Shown here: one piece after another, positions 1 to 7,626 of the stretch
Layout: every line of letters begins with the position of its first letter
How positions within the stretch are numbered: position 1 is the first letter of the stretch
Made by a program: the position numbers and the translations under genes
The notes under the pieces: generated by a model
The model's database searches: none
What the model was told of the DNA's origin: nothing
The model's input: only the letters and a program-made list of their open reading frames with translations
DNA from: a virus
Length of the DNA stretch: 11,260 nucleotides
Virus genome (UHGV): UHGV-1833968
Reading direction: 5' to 3' (one strand)

Positions 1-232
1 ATATTTCTCCTGTTGTACAAGCTTCCATAAGTTGGCAGATTATACACTGAAGATTACCTATAAATAGCTGTGCGGGATAGCAGATCAGTGCAAGAAGTAC
101 AACCAAGTGAACTGTGCGTATTCAGATACCTGGCCTAACGTTCGCGATAGCCGTCCCCTGCACGAAGCCATATATTAGATGTATTAGCTCAGACCTTATC
201 TGACAGGTTGAGTAGGTAGAATCTAATCAAAG

Positions 233-366
233 CTGACAGTCTGGTTTGGACTGTGAGTTCAACCGATGGATGCAACACACAGCGATCTACGGACATTACT
301 AGCATAGCTGTGTATTAATCATCGGGAAGCAGGTCAGTCCGCTCCTAGCACAGAGCAGACTGTCAG
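233..366. repeat. 11-bp perfect inverted repeat pair ctgacagtctg (233-243) / cagactgtcag (356-366), 112 bp apart, with a third copy of the CTGACAG heptamer at 200-206
   Basis: Exact reverse-complement match verified by hand. The second arm lies inside the loop of the 346-387 hairpin, so the two are nested. A further 6-bp hairpin acagtc-tggtttg-gactgt sits at 236-254. Confidence 0.55.
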
Positions 367-387
367 ATTAGGCTTTACTCTGTGCTA
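346..387. repeat. Perfect 10-bp inverted repeat (stem tagcacagag / ctctgtgcta) with 22-nt spacer, 35 nt beyond the G stop codon
   Basis: 346-355 tagcacagag and 378-387 ctctgtgcta are exact reverse complements. No flanking U/T run on either strand, so not a canonical intrinsic terminator. Confidence 0.6.
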
Positions 388-421
388 TAGATACGTTAGC
401 TCACTCCAGAGATCATACAAC

Positions 422-949
422 TTATTGCGGCATTTCCGGCCATTCAGGATTTGCAGGATCCACACGGCTGACCAGAACACTGTAGCGTTCCCATGCTTCC
501 AGTCGGCTACGCTCCTCATCTGTTGCCATATTCAGTCTGACAGAGCGTTCCAGTGGCTGAATGATAGTTTCAGCTTCGGAAAGCAAAGCTGACTTCTGTA
601 ATTCCGCCAGTTGCAGCTGTTCGTCTGCCGTATAAATCCGCTTAATCACGGCACCATCCTTAAACATCCATTTACCTGAGTCATCAGCACGTCGGTTGGC
701 GGTAATATCAGGAACCTCGACAACGCTAAAACCTTCAGGGTTGAGCGTTGAAGCATCTCTGGTGATGCCGACAATTATATTATTCTCATCGTAAACAATC
801 TTTATCGTGTCTTCCTGAAAATTACTTACTTCCTCATACCAGTTTTTTCCCTCTTCAGACCATAACCAGATAACATCAAAATTTTTTGTCAGTTGATATT
901 GGGCAACAGTTTTTGGATTACCCGCAGTAATATTTTTTAAATGCTGCAT
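422..949 (-). CDS. G: Tail fibre assembly protein (P2 gpG / Tfa-like chaperone)
   Basis: 175-aa ORF starting 3 nt downstream of the tail fibre gene stop. Protein runs MQHLKNI...[11 protein letters not shown]; size and position match P2 G. Very AT-rich (about 33-35% GC on sampled 60-nt lines), like the fibre distal end. Confidence 0.9.
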
Positions 950-952
950 AAA

Positions 953-3688
953 TTACACCTGTGCGACGTTATACCATGTGCCATTGATGTATTTTTGTAT
1001 TGGTCTGAATACTGCGGGGTCATCACCATCGACTTCACCGACAATACCAAGCCCGGTAATTACGTGCCCTGCTTTCTCATACATCACCCCTTTCTGCATG
1101 GTCTGGACAACACGTGTGCCAAGTCTGACATCTCTCACATAGCGGGAATCAAAGTTACCGTAATCCGAGGGATTAACACGCCCCGTAATATTTATGGTTT
1201 TATTACTTTGAACGCTTCCGGAGACAAAGCGCATAACATGGACGCTATTAGCATAAACATCCAGATTACCATCACCATTTTGTTTAAAGCCCGTGTCATT
1301 ATCACCCAAAACAATCGAATTACCGCCAAGAGCACTGGATGTTCCTATACCCAGAGCACCATTCAATTGACCACCAGATAACGGCAGTGCACCGACATCT
1401 CCCGCTGTAGGTTTTCGCGTTGTGGTATAAAACTCAGACCAGTCAGCCTCGAATCCGTAACCGTCACGAGCAGAACGATAAAAAATACCACCGTTCTTAT
1501 AATTAACGCGAAACTGGGCGGCGGGACAACTTCCTTCCCCGATATTAAAATGAAGAATTAACGTTGATGCCCCACCAATAGTTGCGTTATAGGCTCCGCT
1601 ACTCCAGTTCCATCCAACGGCTTTATCATTCGCAACGGTGTCTCCTGTTTTTCCTGAAGCAAATGCACCAATATTTTTCGGCGTCAGGTTAATATCTGAT
1701 GTTCCATCAAACGAAACGTTATTAATTTTACGGGCTGTTTTCAGCTTTGTTGCTGTCGCCGCATTGCCGGACAGTTCACCAGAAAGGCCAGCACTGAATG
1801 TCTGTTTCGCGCCCCATGTCTGGGCTTCGTCAATGATTGGTACTCGTCTTGTTGTGATCGTGCGGCTTCCCGGATTTCCTGAAATGCGCACCATAAAAAA
1901 GCGGTAGTTGGCTTTACTTACAGTGCTGCGCCATACATGCATTGAGCGCCCCGAACCAGAATCATCACTCGGACCGACTGAGATGTTTATCAGGTTGCCA
2001 TCAATGACGCCCCAGTCCATACCGTCGGGAATGTTGGTCATATTATCAAGCCGAACGGTTATCAGACTGCCCGGCACAAAATCGTAGGTCTGCCAGTCCA
2101 GACTGGATAGTTTTGCCACTGCGCCACCGATGCCCAGATTCAGAGGCAACGAAAAGGAGTTATATACTTCTCGCCATTCGGTCCATTTGCTCCCGGCATA
2201 GACGCGCTCAAAAGTGCGCCCCTGTGTGGTTTCTGATTTCCCTGTGGTTGTGTAACGCTGCCAGACAGATACACCATCAAAACGCCTGATTACTTCCAGT
2301 ATTCCAAGCAGTGTCGCTCCAGCGGTATCCTGCATTGGACCGTTTGACGCCTTCCCTGTAACGCTGTAAATGCCTGGCGAAGTCAGATCATTCAAATCAC
2401 CTTCGTAATAACGACATTCTGACTGATGGCCTACTCTTGACCACGGCTCCCACTGTGGGTTCTGTGCATTCCATATAGCAGAAAGGCAGCGAACATATAC
2501 GTTCCCACGGCGGGTCGTATAGCGTTGCGTGCGTGAGTACCCACCACCCTCAAGAACTTCAAGGAATCCCTGACCATAAATTCCTTCTTCCGGATAGTTG
2601 CGGTCAAATGAAGCGATAGAGCCACTACTGTTTCGCCATAAACCAAGATGCTCTGCGCCTCCTAGCGTGTTCAGGTCAATAGTTGTGCTCAGGGGGCGTG
2701 TTGCAGACTGAATCTGACGCCAGTAGATCCACGGACCGTCTGAGCCATTCCAGGTGCCAGAAAGATTACGCATATAAACATTGCCAGTTCTGGTGGTATA
2801 ACGCTGCATTCCGGAAAAATTACCGCCATTGAATACCTCAAGAACACCGACTGCACCGTCTTCAGGGAAATTTTTCTCCAGTGTTGCGTTGGAGGATGTG
2901 GATTTAGACCAGACACCCACATAAGCCTTAACTGGACCAAATGTATTGAGATCAGCATCAACCGGCATTTCGCCGTTGTTTTTCATAAACGTCAGGCTGG
3001 TAACACCAATATTGTCCAGAAAAGCTGATTTATCCTGGATATCTGCACCGTTCTGATTTTTCGCCAGACGTGAATTTGCGTTGTCATTTGCTGCCTTGAC
3101 CGCTTTTGGCGTTGCCGCCAGCTCTTCACTGGTGCTGTTTGTTGCACTGCTTAACTGAGTAAAACCTTTTTCTGTCAGCGTGGCGTCAGGATGGCGGCGG
3201 GACTGCTCATGCTCTGCGATTTTGTCATCGACGTAATCCTGCGTCGCCATCACTGTGCTGGCATCAATACTCAGCTCAACGGACGCCACGTTGCTGAGAA
3301 TAATAACCATGCGGCAGGTCTGCGCACGTCCGGAGCCTTCAGCCAGTTCTGGCTTATAGCTTTCAGCCATGTTGGATACCGCAATCAGTGTTCCGGCATC
3401 GTCATACAGACCAAGCTCACGCATCCAGAAGCCGCCCACTTCGGGCGGTACAACCAGTTCAGCCACAATATAGTTTTTATTCTTATTATCCACACTGACT
3501 TTATTCAGAGCGTGACGCCAGACCTCATGCACCAGTTTCGTCTGACCGGCATCCGGCACCGGTAATTTGCCATTACCGTCACCCACGGCCATTGCAGACA
3601 GGTTTACTTTTTTCCCGCCGGGGACAGTGGCGGCTGCCAGCTTTGCGGCTCCGGCAGTAGTGATAACGGTTTTAAATTTCGTGCTCAT
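953..3688 (-). CDS. H: Tail fibre protein (P2 gpH-like, mosaic, 911 aa)
   Basis: Uninterrupted 911-aa ORF. The N-terminal ~200 aa (MSTKFKTVITTAGAAKLAAA...EVWRHALNK...FWMRELGLYDDAGTLIAV) matches the conserved baseplate-attachment domain of P2 H from recall. The centre holds three tandem ~80-aa repeats. The C-terminal region (GGNSIVLGDNDTGFKQNGDG...GNFDSRYVRDVRLGTRVVQ...KYINGTWYNVAQV) is fibre-tip-like. Position between I and G fits. Confidence 0.9.
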   Translation of the reverse strand: MSTKFKTVITTAGAAKLAAATVPGGKKVNLSAMAVGDGNGKLPVPDAGQTKLVHEVWRHALNKVSVDNKNKNYIVAELVVPPEVGGFWMRELGLYDDAGTLIAVSNMAESYKPELAEGSGRAQTCRMVIILSNVASVELSIDASTVMATQDYVDDKIAEHEQSRRHPDATLTEKGFTQLSSATNSTSEELAATPKAVKAANDNANSRLAKNQNGADIQDKSAFLDNIGVTSLTFMKNNGEMPVDADLNTFGPVKAYVGVWSKSTSSNATLEKNFPEDGAVGVLEVFNGGNFSGMQRYTTRTGNVYMRNLSGTWNGSDGPWIYWRQIQSATRPLSTTIDLNTLGGAEHLGLWRNSSGSIASFDRNYPEEGIYGQGFLEVLEGGGYSRTQRYTTRRGNVYVRCLSAIWNAQNPQWEPWSRVGHQSECRYYEGDLNDLTSPGIYSVTGKASNGPMQDTAGATLLGILEVIRRFDGVSVWQRYTTTGKSETTQGRTFERVYAGSKWTEWREVYNSFSLPLNLGIGGAVAKLSSLDWQTYDFVPGSLITVRLDNMTNIPDGMDWGVIDGNLINISVGPSDDSGSGRSMHVWRSTVSKANYRFFMVRISGNPGSRTITTRRVPIIDEAQTWGAKQTFSAGLSGELSGNAATATKLKTARKINNVSFDGTSDINLTPKNIGAFASGKTGDTVANDKAVGWNWSSGAYNATIGGASTLILHFNIGEGSCPAAQFRVNYKNGGIFYRSARDGYGFEADWSEFYTTTRKPTAGDVGALPLSGGQLNGALGIGTSSALGGNSIVLGDNDTGFKQNGDGNLDVYANSVHVMRFVSGSVQSNKTINITGRVNPSDYGNFDSRYVRDVRLGTRVVQTMQKGVMYEKAGHVITGLGIVGEVDGDDPAVFRPIQKYINGTWYNVAQV
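2159..2938 (-). repeat. Three tandem, diverged ~80-aa repeat modules inside the tail fibre (aa ~251-335, 342-425, 438-510)
   Basis: Protein-level alignment of the translated ORF. Shared motifs: G-x-LEV-x-x-G, QRYTT(R/T)xGNVY(M/V)R, S-x-x-W, (E/I)-(P/Y)-W. Example cores: GVLEVFNGGNFSGMQRYTTRTGNVYMRNLSGTWN / GFLEVLEGGGYSRTQRYTTRRGNVYVRCLSAIWN / GILEVIRRFDGVSVWQRYTTTGKSETTQGRTFERVYAGSKW. Nucleotide coordinates are derived from aa positions and are approximate. Confidence 0.75.
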
Positions 3689-3698
3689 TGTTTCTCAC

Positions 3699-4229
3699 TT
3701 ATCCGGGATAAACAGTAATAACATCACCATCACAGACCACACCGCCTGTATACAGGTAGCCGGGAATGTCCTGGGTAATGTTCAGACCAATAAGGTGACG
3801 GCTTGCGGGTTTGGCATCAGCAATCAGTCGCTCCATTTCCAGATACATTTCCTCTGTGATGCCGCTTTCCAGTACACCAATATCGAGCCGGAAGGTGCCG
3901 GGCGGGTCATTGTTTTCCCACCACTCCGTCACATTGATGAGATAGCCGAGCGGCTCCACCACACGCCGGATTGCACCTATAGTGCCTTTATGACAGTGGA
4001 TGAAATAGGCATCGCGGATAACGGCGCGTTTTGTCGCTTCCGGCCACTTTTCATCCCACCTGTCGACCGAAAACGCCCACGCCAGCCACGGCAGCAGATT
4101 TGCCGGACAGGTGTTCGGGTTCCACAGTTCACGAATACTGACCGGCGTTTTTTCAATTTCCGCACAGGCTTTTGCGGCGGCGACTTCAAGCGGTGATGAG
4201 CCGGTCGGCAGCAGGCGCGAATCACTCAT
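3699..4229 (-). CDS. I: Baseplate assembly protein (P2 gpI-like)
   Basis: 176-aa ORF (MSDSRLLPTGSSPLEVAAAKA...), same size as P2 I. Lies between J and H; its start overlaps the J stop by 8 nt. Confidence 0.88.
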   Translation of the reverse strand: MSDSRLLPTGSSPLEVAAAKACAEIEKTPVSIRELWNPNTCPANLLPWLAWAFSVDRWDEKWPEATKRAVIRDAYFIHCHKGTIGAIRRVVEPLGYLINVTEWWENNDPPGTFRLDIGVLESGITEEMYLEMERLIADAKPASRHLIGLNITQDIPGYLYTGGVVCDGDVITVYPG

Positions 4230-6633: not shown

Positions 6634-7093
6634 CCCACTTGCTCACCAGTTCGCCATTGATATAAAGCTCCACCGGGCGGGTGACCGGCTCCGGCGGCGG
6701 AGGTTCCGGGATATTCTTCACATGCAGCGCACCGTCAACCTCACTGACCAGCGTGCGCTCGGTCAGCATCAGGCTGATACTGATATCAAAGCTGCTGTCA
6801 TTGTTGATGTCTGCATAAAACGTGAAGCCCTTTTTCTGGCCTTCGTCGGTGGTCATGATGTCGGGCTGATTTTCCCGCAGCCACGCCAGCACCGGCACGA
6901 TGAGCAGGTCAAAATCACCGGTAAAGTCGGTCACAATCACATTGAGCGTGTAACGCTTTTCGAATGACAGCGACGTCGCCAGTGTGGAAGCAATACTCCC
7001 GTTATCCACGAATATCCGCAGCATCTCTGGACTGGTTTTCAGCACCGTGACGGCATCAGTCAGCGCCCTGCGCAGGCTGTCGGGTTTGAGCAT
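6626..7093 (-). CDS. R: Tail completion protein R (P2 gpR-like)
   Basis: 155-aa ORF (MLKPDSLRRALTDAVTVLKTSPEMLRIFVDNG...), same size as P2 R. Its 5' end overlaps the 3' end of lysC. Confidence 0.9.
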   Translation of the reverse strand: MLKPDSLRRALTDAVTVLKTSPEMLRIFVDNGSIASTLATSLSFEKRYTLNVIVTDFTGDFDLLIVPVLAWLRENQPDIMTTDEGQKKGFTFYADINNDSSFDISISLMLTERTLVSEVDGALHVKNIPEPPPPEPVTRPVELYINGELVSKWDE

Positions 7094-7346
7094 CGTTTTC
7101 GTCCTGACAGTGTTTAATCATTTTTATCTGGCTGGCACAGTGTGCCAGCGCGTTCTCAAGCTGCCGGATATCGGCACTTAAATCGCCGTTCTTCTCTGGG
7201 TCACTGCCCGGCATCGGGCAAAGACTCACTTTCGGGCAAGCGTTGTGGACAATCACTGGCGTCGGCGCAGGCCGGGCGCTGGTGCAACCGGCGCACAGCA
7301 TCAGGCAGGTCAGCACCGTACCAGCGGCGAAAATCTTCGTTTTCAT
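7056..7346 (-). CDS. lysC: Outer-membrane spanin lipoprotein LysC (Rz1-like), embedded out of frame in lysB
   Basis: The track ORF 7056..7463 contains an internal Met at 7346 giving a 96-aa product MKTKIFAAGTVLTCLMLCAGCTSARPAPTPVIV... with a signal peptide, Cys-containing lipobox-like segment and Pro-rich mature region. GAGG Shine-Dalgarno 8 nt upstream on the coding strand. Starts inside lysB in another frame and runs 38 nt into R, as in P2. Confidence 0.8.
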   Translation of the reverse strand: MKTKIFAAGTVLTCLMLCAGCTSARPAPTPVIVHNACPKVSLCPMPGSDPEKNGDLSADIRQLENALAHCASQIKMIKHCQDENDAQTRQPAQGAD

Positions 7347-7626
7347 TGAGTAACCTCGTGATGGTTTTCTCGCGCTGTGCTTCACGCTTCGCGGCGTTCT
7401 CCAGCTCCTGACGCAGTGCCACCTGCGCCAGCTCGTTTTTGTCTGCCCTGGTAAGGGCAACATGAAGCTGGTTTTTCAGCATGGTGATGGTCGTCTGCTG
7501 CCCGCTGGCGACATTGTTCGCCCTGTCCAGTGAGGCGCGCAGTCTGGCGTTTTCATGCTTCGCCAGAAACAGCCCCGCTACCGCCAGCGATAACAACACG
7601 ACCAGCACAATCATCAGCTTTGACAT
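7201..7626 (-). CDS. lysB: Inner-membrane spanin LysB (Rz-like)
   Basis: 141-aa ORF with N-terminal transmembrane segment (MSKLMIVLVVLLSLAVAGLFLA) followed by a charged, coiled-coil-like region. Same size as P2 LysB; contains lysC in an alternate frame. Confidence 0.88.
   Translation of the reverse strand: MSKLMIVLVVLLSLAVAGLFLAKHENARLRASLDRANNVASGQQTTITMLKNQLHVALTRADKNELAQVALRQELENAAKREAQREKTITRLLNENEDFRRWYGADLPDAVRRLHQRPACADASDCPQRLPESESLPDAGQ

Follow-up and report, generated by a model that had tools for sequence, protein, structure and literature searches.

The window, by which we mean the whole 11,260-nucleotide stretch of UHGV virus genome UHGV-1833968, carries a tail fiber gene within a late operon of the order J, I, H, G (Table 1), with V, W, S, R and the lysis genes upstream as open reading frames and with Pfam assignments for J, I and the assembly protein. 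The order V-W-J-I-H-G, with a gpG-type assembly gene following H, matches the records of both P2 and L-413C. The reading frame of H is unbroken within this complete operon, and GC content falls across its 3' part and across G; a promoter and terminator scan of window positions 1-1000 returned nothing exceeding shuffle expectation. The encoded protein (gpH) is identical at 909 of 911 residues to WP_264723770.1, a RefSeq protein of an E. coli ECA64 prophage from which it differs by the two substitutions S261Y and R852K, and it shares 98.6% amino-acid identity over its full length with the tail fiber of Peduovirus P24B2 (YP_009877230). A search of NCBIfam returned no family for the gpH protein. 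We put at roughly 85% the probability that this locus is gene H of a P2-like (Peduovirus) E. coli prophage, encoding a long P2 fiber of the L-413C type: a linear mosaic with three pyocin knobs, which would be chiefly structural, and a distal part that would bind the lipopolysaccharide (LPS) core. The fiber type, its mosaic origin, its receptor-binding role and the repeat family are all already on record, and the allele is near-identical to annotated proteins.

Table 1. Genes at the H locus and domains of the gene H product, in window coordinates.
Feature	Residues	Position	Strand	Evidence
Gene I, baseplate protein, upstream neighbor of H		3699..4229	(-)	Pfam Tail_P2_I E=3.2e-55
Gene H, 911-aa tail fiber		953..3688	(-)	ORF list; ATG start; stop codon 953-955; PHROG 381 tail fiber protein E=1e-205
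N-terminal tail-collar (baseplate attachment) domain, P2 gpH-like	1-151	3236..3688	(-)	PF12571 (Phage_tail_fib) E=3.3e-57; 83% to P2 gpH 1-160
Phage_fiber_2 shaft repeat	170-211	3056..3181	(-)	PF03406 E=4.6e-21; also Mu S 110-176
Knob domain 1 (K1/R1)	241-327	2708..2968	(-)	knob HMM E=1.7e-36; pLDDT about 85-90
Knob domain 2 (K2/R2)	334-420	2429..2689	(-)	knob HMM E=1.7e-35; hhalign
Knob domain 3 (K3/R3), most diverged copy	427-510	2159..2410	(-)	knob HMM E=3.5e-25; hhalign
Fourth beta-domain	524-622	1823..2119	(-)	knob-like by predicted fold only
Conserved linker, SGELSGNAATATKLKTARKINNVSFDGTSDINL	626-670	1679..1813	(-)	98-100% identical in 7/7 relatives compared
Phage Mu S' (G(-) fiber)-like domain	671-768	1385..1678	(-)	PDB 8ju3 residues 320-417, E=4.4e-49, about 85%; weak Pfam gp37_C
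P2 gpH-like distal tip: gp37-type needle motif and chaperone-dependent C-terminus	770-911	956..1381	(-)	P2 gpH; S16 gp37 tip 6f45; Mu S 426-503
Gene G, tail fiber assembly protein (tip chaperone)		422..949	(-)	Pfam Caudo_TAP E=6.7e-34; 89% to P2 gpG

An earlier, sequence-only reading had described a mosaic fiber with a P2-type anchor in its N-terminal ~200 residues, some 240 residues longer than P2 H (669 aa) and carrying a triplicated internal module, and the comparison with P2 gpH (NP_046775) bears this out. Residues 1-207, which include the Phage_tail_fib and Phage_fiber_2 matches, are 83.6% identical to P2 gpH 1-207, P2 homology stops at residue 207, and the protein exceeds P2 gpH by 242 residues, with the triplicated module making up much of the extra length. 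P2 gpH has neither knob domains nor a Mu S'-like segment, and its middle (208-470) is unrelated. Likeness to P2 resumes distally, where residues 770-845 align with P2 gpH 477-534 at 67% identity and residues 846-911 with its last 66 residues (604-669) at 83%; the needle motif GDNDTGFKQNGDG is common to both proteins, and the tip of P2 gpH carries about 56 additional residues. The PF12571 collar, the P2 H-type tip and the position in the late operon, which P2 shares along with a gpG chaperone 89% identical to the assembly protein here, together mark the product as a P2 gpH-type fiber.

The segment preceding the P2-type tip has its counterpart in phage Mu, as the chain of Mu S' (8JU3) is closely similar to this domain, which sits here between the knobs and the tip. 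In Mu S (5YVQ) the C-terminus further matches residues 836-910 and the shaft repeat matches residues 167-233. For S/S'-type switching, neither an alternative fiber gene nor an invertase was found in the window by ORF list and Pfam, which show a single fiber gene and a single assembly gene; the likeness to Mu is one of protein segments only. The linker upstream of the Mu-like domain forms the downstream conserved flank of a variable cassette and, by our own reading of its sequence, may resemble fiber shaft repeats. A predicted structure of residues 505-911 has a mean pLDDT of 57.8, being poor outside the fourth domain and below 50 in places within the distal 290 residues, and all predicted structures are monomer models only. 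The C-terminal 142 residues of P2 H type, the Mu S'-like segment and the fourth beta-domain are features beyond those recorded by the earlier reading.

The three internal repeats are homologous, with a similarity well beyond chance. Because self-BLASTP of the whole protein gave the diagonal only, contained HSPs being culled, segments were aligned by Smith-Waterman against shuffled sequences, with z=32 for R1-R2, 4.7 for R1-R3 and 2.7 for R2-R3. Alignment of per-repeat family profiles with hhalign, over at least 72 columns in each pair, gave 99.8% (E=8e-30), 96.9% (E=1.6e-10) and 94.4% (E=9e-8) for the same three pairs. Searched with an HMM of the unit, gpH shows exactly three copies, at 241-327, 334-420 and 427-510, and P2 gpH none. 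The sequence-only reading was thus right about three tandem diverged repeats, and the motif that it singled out (G-x-LEV, QRYTT, Y-x-R, W-x-x-W) corresponds to the unit's conserved core. Of the two findings that it held would tell against it, unrecognizable homology among the repeats did not materialize; the other, identity to an already characterized fiber, largely applies, the protein being 99.8% identical to the RefSeq protein and 98.6% to that of P24B2, and of the L-413C gpH type.

The profile-HMM search that the same reading had proposed for naming the repeat family also succeeded. Even with E-values as high as 10 allowed, Pfam returned nothing credible for the middle region, whether taken whole or as single repeats, and a single-sequence PDB search with residues 228-635 gave no match; the pooled repeat profile alone reached the pyocin fibers, matching 6cl5 (E=1.8e-5), 6cl6 (1.5e-4) and 6ct8 (2.1e-4) over profile positions 6-86. 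Knob2 is the part of the pyocin fibers that these matches cover, and Knob1 is matched below threshold. The predicted five-strand layout is the same in K1, K2 and K3, in keeping with the knob-type antiparallel five- or six-stranded beta-sheet with connecting loops, and close homologs carry the NCBI name "pyocin knob domain-containing protein". From profile and predicted fold, the repeats are assigned to pyocin-knob domains, an already named family, with a unit of ~85 residues. R1 and R2 pyocin fibers (6CL5, 6CL6, 6CT8/6CU2) have two knobs, compared with three, perhaps four, in gpH, and in the pyocins the knobs are followed by an iron-containing shaft and a lectin-fold foot, whereas here a Mu/P2-type tip follows with a separate Caudo_TAP chaperone. 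A kinship with beta-propeller lectins, considered from a Foldseek search with the four-domain model, was rejected, the matches (TM 0.11-0.18) being in our view an artifact of tandem small beta-sheets.

The long mosaic fiber type was first described in L-413C, a plague-diagnostic phage, whose gpH (NP_839867, 913 aa) agrees with the protein described here in gene position, length and domain order and is 81.7% identical to it overall. As summarized in a later source (PMC7460101), the mosaic published by Garcia et al. 2008 comprises 207 N-terminal and 137 C-terminal P2-like residues around a foreign middle. In 30-residue windows, identity between the two proteins is 93-100% over residues 1-235 and 97-100% over residues 631-911. 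The middle (241-630), with its three knobs at equal positions, consists of different alleles, at 48% identity for K1, 69% for K2, 45% for K3 and 71% for the fourth domain. The differences are limited to this region, with dS saturated, and are old, recombined alleles. Our protein is of the L-413C type, which at about 911-919 residues combines collar, fiber repeat, three knobs, fourth domain, Mu S'-like segment and P2 tip. It aligns collinearly over its full length with the fibers of L-413C, YpM_50, YpM_22, phage 899, PhiR44_1 and P24B2, and all four relatives scanned with the knob HMM gave three matches, at the same positions in L-413C, phage 899 and PhiR44_1 and at shifted coordinates in Shigella phage JK23 (P0054).

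Among otherwise near-identical fibers, no other region varies nearly as much as the knobs, which have 45-98% identity compared with at least 97% in the flanks. Knob dS ranges from 0.8 to above 2 and flank dS from 0.006 to 0.18; dN/dS is well under 1 in all modules that allowed an estimate, and the knob values of 0.07-0.18 indicate purifying selection on old alleles with no arms-race signature. Relative to P24B2, K1 and K2 show a few nonsynonymous and zero synonymous differences, numbers too low to speak for selection. Recombination has a hotspot in the knob cassette, where old, highly diverged alleles are exchanged within conserved flanks. A second, independently exchanged hotspot consists of the extreme tip and the N-terminal half of the chaperone, fiber residues 846-911 and the N-terminal half of assembly protein G switching allele together in relatives. 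The same three-knob cassette occurs in the JK23 protein, named in its source as a large distal tail fiber subunit, and in proteins with other fiber domains, from which it follows that the triplication is no recent event in the lineage of the window. Copy number differs among related fibers, with one knob in P0085 (a 679-aa P2-type fiber) and P0102, two in P0094 and P0106, and three in gpH.

For the gpH of L-413C, experiments have confirmed the role of receptor-binding protein and the receptor has been mapped; the protein binds Yersinia pestis cells (PMC7460101, PMC3182234). The sequence-only reading had supposed a receptor specificity probably unlike that of P2. At the level of the receptor this finds no support: according to Filippov et al., L-413C and P2 vir1 share, on Y. 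pestis, the same critical residue, the terminal GlcNAc of the LPS outer core (PMC3182234). The common requirement agrees with the P2-type tip and gpG-type chaperone that these fibers share. Host range and plating efficiency are unlike between L-413C and P2 vir1, which leaves room for some difference in specificity. A receptor-recognition hotspot of coliphage P88, HR2 (716-746), was considered for transfer to gpH and rejected, since the paper on it describes a differently built fiber, with 65% identity to P2 gpH from end to end and a gp34-like fold at residues 426-612 (PMC5285337), whose numbering is, to judge from that description, unlikely to carry over to gpH.

In linear order, the P2-type N-terminal collar, which docks on the baseplate, is followed by a single Phage_fiber_2 shaft repeat, the three tandem pyocin knobs, the fourth beta-domain, the Mu S'-like domain and the P2 H-type distal tip. 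By homology, the fiber would be a homotrimer whose tip is folded by the gpG-type chaperone encoded directly downstream. Residues 631-911 would, by homology to L-413C gpH, bind the LPS core, where on Y. pestis the terminal GlcNAc would be critical and inner-core heptoses would contribute. Each knob may form a small five-stranded sheet packed around the trimer axis, so that the string of knobs would act as a beaded extension of the shaft, adding length and folding nuclei and exposing variable loops. The knobs would thus be mainly structural, possibly with auxiliary low-affinity contacts to sugars. Variation lies somewhat more often outside the strands in K1 and K3 (p about 0.015) and not significantly so in K2. 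This loop bias in K1 and K3 is compatible, as weak evidence, with a trimeric bead whose sheets lie at the three-fold axis and whose loops face outward.

It is conceivable, if on balance unlikely, that the knobs contact no ligand at all and serve purely as spacers and folding nuclei, with copy number setting only the length and reach of the fiber. The variation from one to three knobs among related fibers fits this idea, as does the probable contribution of knob-like domains to trimer folding (PMC6116203). However, many deeply diverged and repeatedly exchanged alleles would be unexpected of pure spacers, and small-molecule mimics of LPS are bound to Knob2 in the R2 pyocin structure (PMC6116203). 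The opposite possibility, which we consider doubtful, is that the knob cassette rather than the tip is the principal determinant of host range, its variable loops binding strain-specific sugars of the outer core or O-antigen such that exchange of the cassette retargets the phage. Beyond the contrast in identity between knobs and flanks and the enrichment of variation outside the strands, there is precedent in R-type pyocins, in which Knob2 is the most variable part and has been proposed to outweigh the C-terminal lectin domain in setting the killing spectrum (PMC6116203), and knob-like domains occur in saccharide-binding fibers and spikes. As the knobs are also the most variable part of the present fibers, this precedent makes a larger role in host range possible. 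Against it, L-413C, YpM_50 and YpM_22 differ clearly in knob alleles, share the same tip and each have Y. pestis as their recorded host; P2, which is without knobs, requires the same critical GlcNAc as L-413C (PMC3182234); and knob dN/dS is low. That the gene is a decaying remnant of a defective prophage and its repeats meaningless duplication debris is effectively refuted. The window is indeed prophage and some relatives have IS insertions nearby, neither of which is specific to such decay. Against it, the frame is intact and the operon complete, dN/dS is well below 1, and fibers of the same length at 92-98% nucleotide identity belong to phages with sequenced genomes, for several of which Y. 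pestis or E. coli is the recorded host.

Alongside the chiefly structural role that we prefer for the knobs, the three-knob cassette could, as a tentative and rather improbable proposal, serve P2-like fibers as a second specificity module that can be exchanged on its own. If so, the same LPS-core-binding tip combined with other knob alleles would yield another host range or adsorption efficiency through lateral contacts with sugars, which would account for the upkeep of many deeply diverged knob alleles in E. coli prophages and for their shuffling within conserved flanks. Comparison with the H genes of P2, L-413C and P24B2, as the sequence-only reading had suggested, supplied the mosaic boundaries: a conserved anchor (1-235), a variable knob cassette (~241-510, reaching ~625 in L-413C), a conserved stretch (626-845) and a tip (846-911) varying in step with the chaperone. 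This map poses the testable question of what tandem knobs add to host range, and its boundaries, of modest practical value, could help fiber engineering for the retargeting of phages and tailocins.

The protein encoded by the fibre gene has a P2-type N-terminus and exceeds P2 gpH (669 aa) by 242 residues, as confirmed by the ORF list, Pfam searches and alignment, and the three tandem diverged repeats that a sequence-only reading had proposed within it proved to be real. In segment-wise Smith-Waterman comparisons against 300 shuffles, repeats R1 and R2 scored z = 32, R1 and R3 z = 4.7, and R2 and R3 z = 2.7; no other pair of fibre segments gave a comparable signal. Profiles made from 15-20 homologues of each repeat were then compared by hhalign, which covered the whole unit each time, with probabilities of 99.8% for R1-R2 (E = 8e-30), 96.9% for R1-R3 (E = 1.6e-10) and 94.4% for R2-R3 (E = 9e-8). 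Scanned with an HMM of the unit, the fibre shows exactly three copies, at residues 241-327, 334-420 and 427-510, and P2 gpH shows none. The repeats are thus recognisable as homologous by sensitive profile methods, and their pooled alignment contains a common core of D-L-N, G-x-W/Y, N-x-P-E, G-x-L-E-V, Q-R-Y-T-T, Y-x-R and W-x-x-W.

Searches of Pfam, NCBIfam and, with single sequences, the PDB assigned the repeats to no family. The pooled repeat profile matches the fibres of R1 and R2 pyocins by sequence (6cl5, E = 1.8e-5; 6cl6, 1.5e-4; 6ct8, 2.1e-4), spanning the whole unit on the stretch named Knob2 by Buth et al. (PMC6116203), with a second, weak match on Knob1. This profile search names the family as the pyocin knob, and the repeats are hereafter K1 to K3. 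Homology to P2 gpH covers residues 1-207 (84%), 770-845 (67%) and 846-911 (83%), P2 gpH having about 56 additional residues between the stretches that match the latter two. The G(-) fibre S' of phage Mu (8ju3) shares about 85% identity with residues 671-768, and the C-terminus has further matches in Mu S (5yvq) and in the tip of S16 gp37 (6f45). Between the assembly protein and P2 gpG, identity is 89%.

The window represents the late region of a P2-like prophage, with the gene order capsid and terminase, lysis, R, S, V, W, J, I, fibre ORF and assembly gene, all on the minus strand (ORF list, Pfam). The baseplate, lysis and head genes have a GC content of 0.56-0.60, which falls to 0.41-0.48 in the 3' third of H and in the assembly gene (window 500-2000), as expected for imported modules.

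Coordinates of the fibre gene and of other features in the window
Feature	Position	Strand	Remark
Tail fibre ORF, 911 aa	953..3688	-	
Tail fibre assembly gene, 175 aa	422..949	-	Directly after the fibre ORF in late region order
Overlapping Rz/Rz1-type spanin genes (LysB/LysC in the ECA64 annotation)	7056-7626		From the ORF list; out-of-frame overlap, ordinary in P2-like phages

This fibre is of an ordinary, already described type, nearly identical to annotated proteins. A chromosomal prophage of E. coli ECA64 is 98.6% identical to the whole window, and its RefSeq fibre protein differs at 2 of 911 residues. Peduovirus P24B2 matches the fibre gene at 98.3% nucleotide and 98.6% protein identity, several Yersinia and Escherichia P2-like phages at 92-93%, and gene H of L-413C in two pieces. 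In 30-residue windows, identity of the fibre to L-413C gpH (913 aa) is 93-100% in residues 1-235, drops to 33-87% in 241-630 and returns to 97-100% in 631-911. A summary of Garcia et al. 2008 (in PMC7460101) describes L-413C gpH as a mosaic with P2-like N-terminal 207 and C-terminal 137 residues and a foreign mosaic middle.

Seven relatives keep at least 97% identity in the anchor and in residues 626-845, and K1, K2 and K3 vary independently among them, from 45% to 98%. The knobs have dS of 0.8 to above 2 (saturated) and dN/dS of 0.07-0.18, against dS of 0.006-0.18 in the flanks; the knob variants are old alleles that recombination has shuffled between conserved flanks, and recent local adaptation does not account for them. 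In K1 and K3, positions outside the predicted strands are modestly more variable (p about 0.015), with no such excess in K2. In PhiR44_1 and P2SIDE7, a change of allele in fibre residues 846-911 (43%) comes with one in the assembly protein's N-terminal half (68-69%); lower last-module identities in other relatives are an artefact of gap columns from 919-aa proteins. The assembly gene and residues 846-911 (window 422-1150) form a second unit of exchange that behaves independently of the knob cassette.

The cassette of three knobs and a fourth domain recurs in a Shigella phage JK23 protein named by its source as a large distal tail fibre subunit (58% identical across 99% of the query), and in proteins with Collar/Phage_fiber or Gp34_trimer domains. 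Among other fibres, a single knob occurs in P0085, a 679-aa P2-type fibre, and in P0102, and a pair in P0106 and in P0094, which carries an S74 chaperone domain. Of 5426 complete E. coli genomes, 398 carry the knob cassette, and since 34 of the 476 matching places (window 1814-2983) are plasmid-borne, carriage by phage-plasmids is suggested. One example is a 47-kb plasmid, where the protein is annotated 'phage tail protein'.

Domain order, module families and recombination pattern can be read directly from these comparisons. By homology, the fibre would be a homotrimer anchored by its collar domain, with the gpG-type chaperone helping to fold the tip and the distal part binding the LPS core. 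gpH of L-413C binds Y. pestis cells (PMC7460101), and, according to PMC11464564 citing Williams et al. 2008, R2 pyocins with its receptor-binding domain kill Y. pestis. Neither L-413C nor P2 vir1 plates on Y. pestis once the outer core has lost its terminal GlcNAc (waaL mutant), and inner-core heptoses contribute to adsorption (Filippov et al., PMC3182234). The earlier suggestion that receptor specificity differs from that of P2 thus finds no support in the available experimental literature. The alternative is a major part for the knobs in specificity, of the kind proposed for pyocin Knob2; it seems unlikely here. P2 has neither knobs nor the Mu S'-like segment, yet shares the terminal GlcNAc as a receptor element with L-413C, and YpM_50, YpM_22 and L-413C, which combine differing knob alleles with the same tip, all have Y. 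pestis as recorded host. Both points place primary receptor recognition probably in the distal part. The knob string would then serve mainly as a beaded extension of the shaft and an aid to trimer folding, and might make auxiliary contacts with sugars.

Window 1-421, downstream of the assembly gene, is non-coding, and a scan of it yielded no consensus for a promoter or a terminator. In prophages of E. coli S88, MS7163, N53 and N62 the matching region is broken into three pieces and has an IS21-like ISEc12 element and a gene annotated 'GTP pyrophosphokinase', neither of which is in the window. Just past window position 1, the closest complete genome, that of E. coli ECA64, carries genes for a DUF5677 protein, a short (about 195 aa) tyrosine recombinase and a hypothetical protein; this trio lies between G and the sheath gene, in the place that the non-essential fun(Z) takes up in P2.
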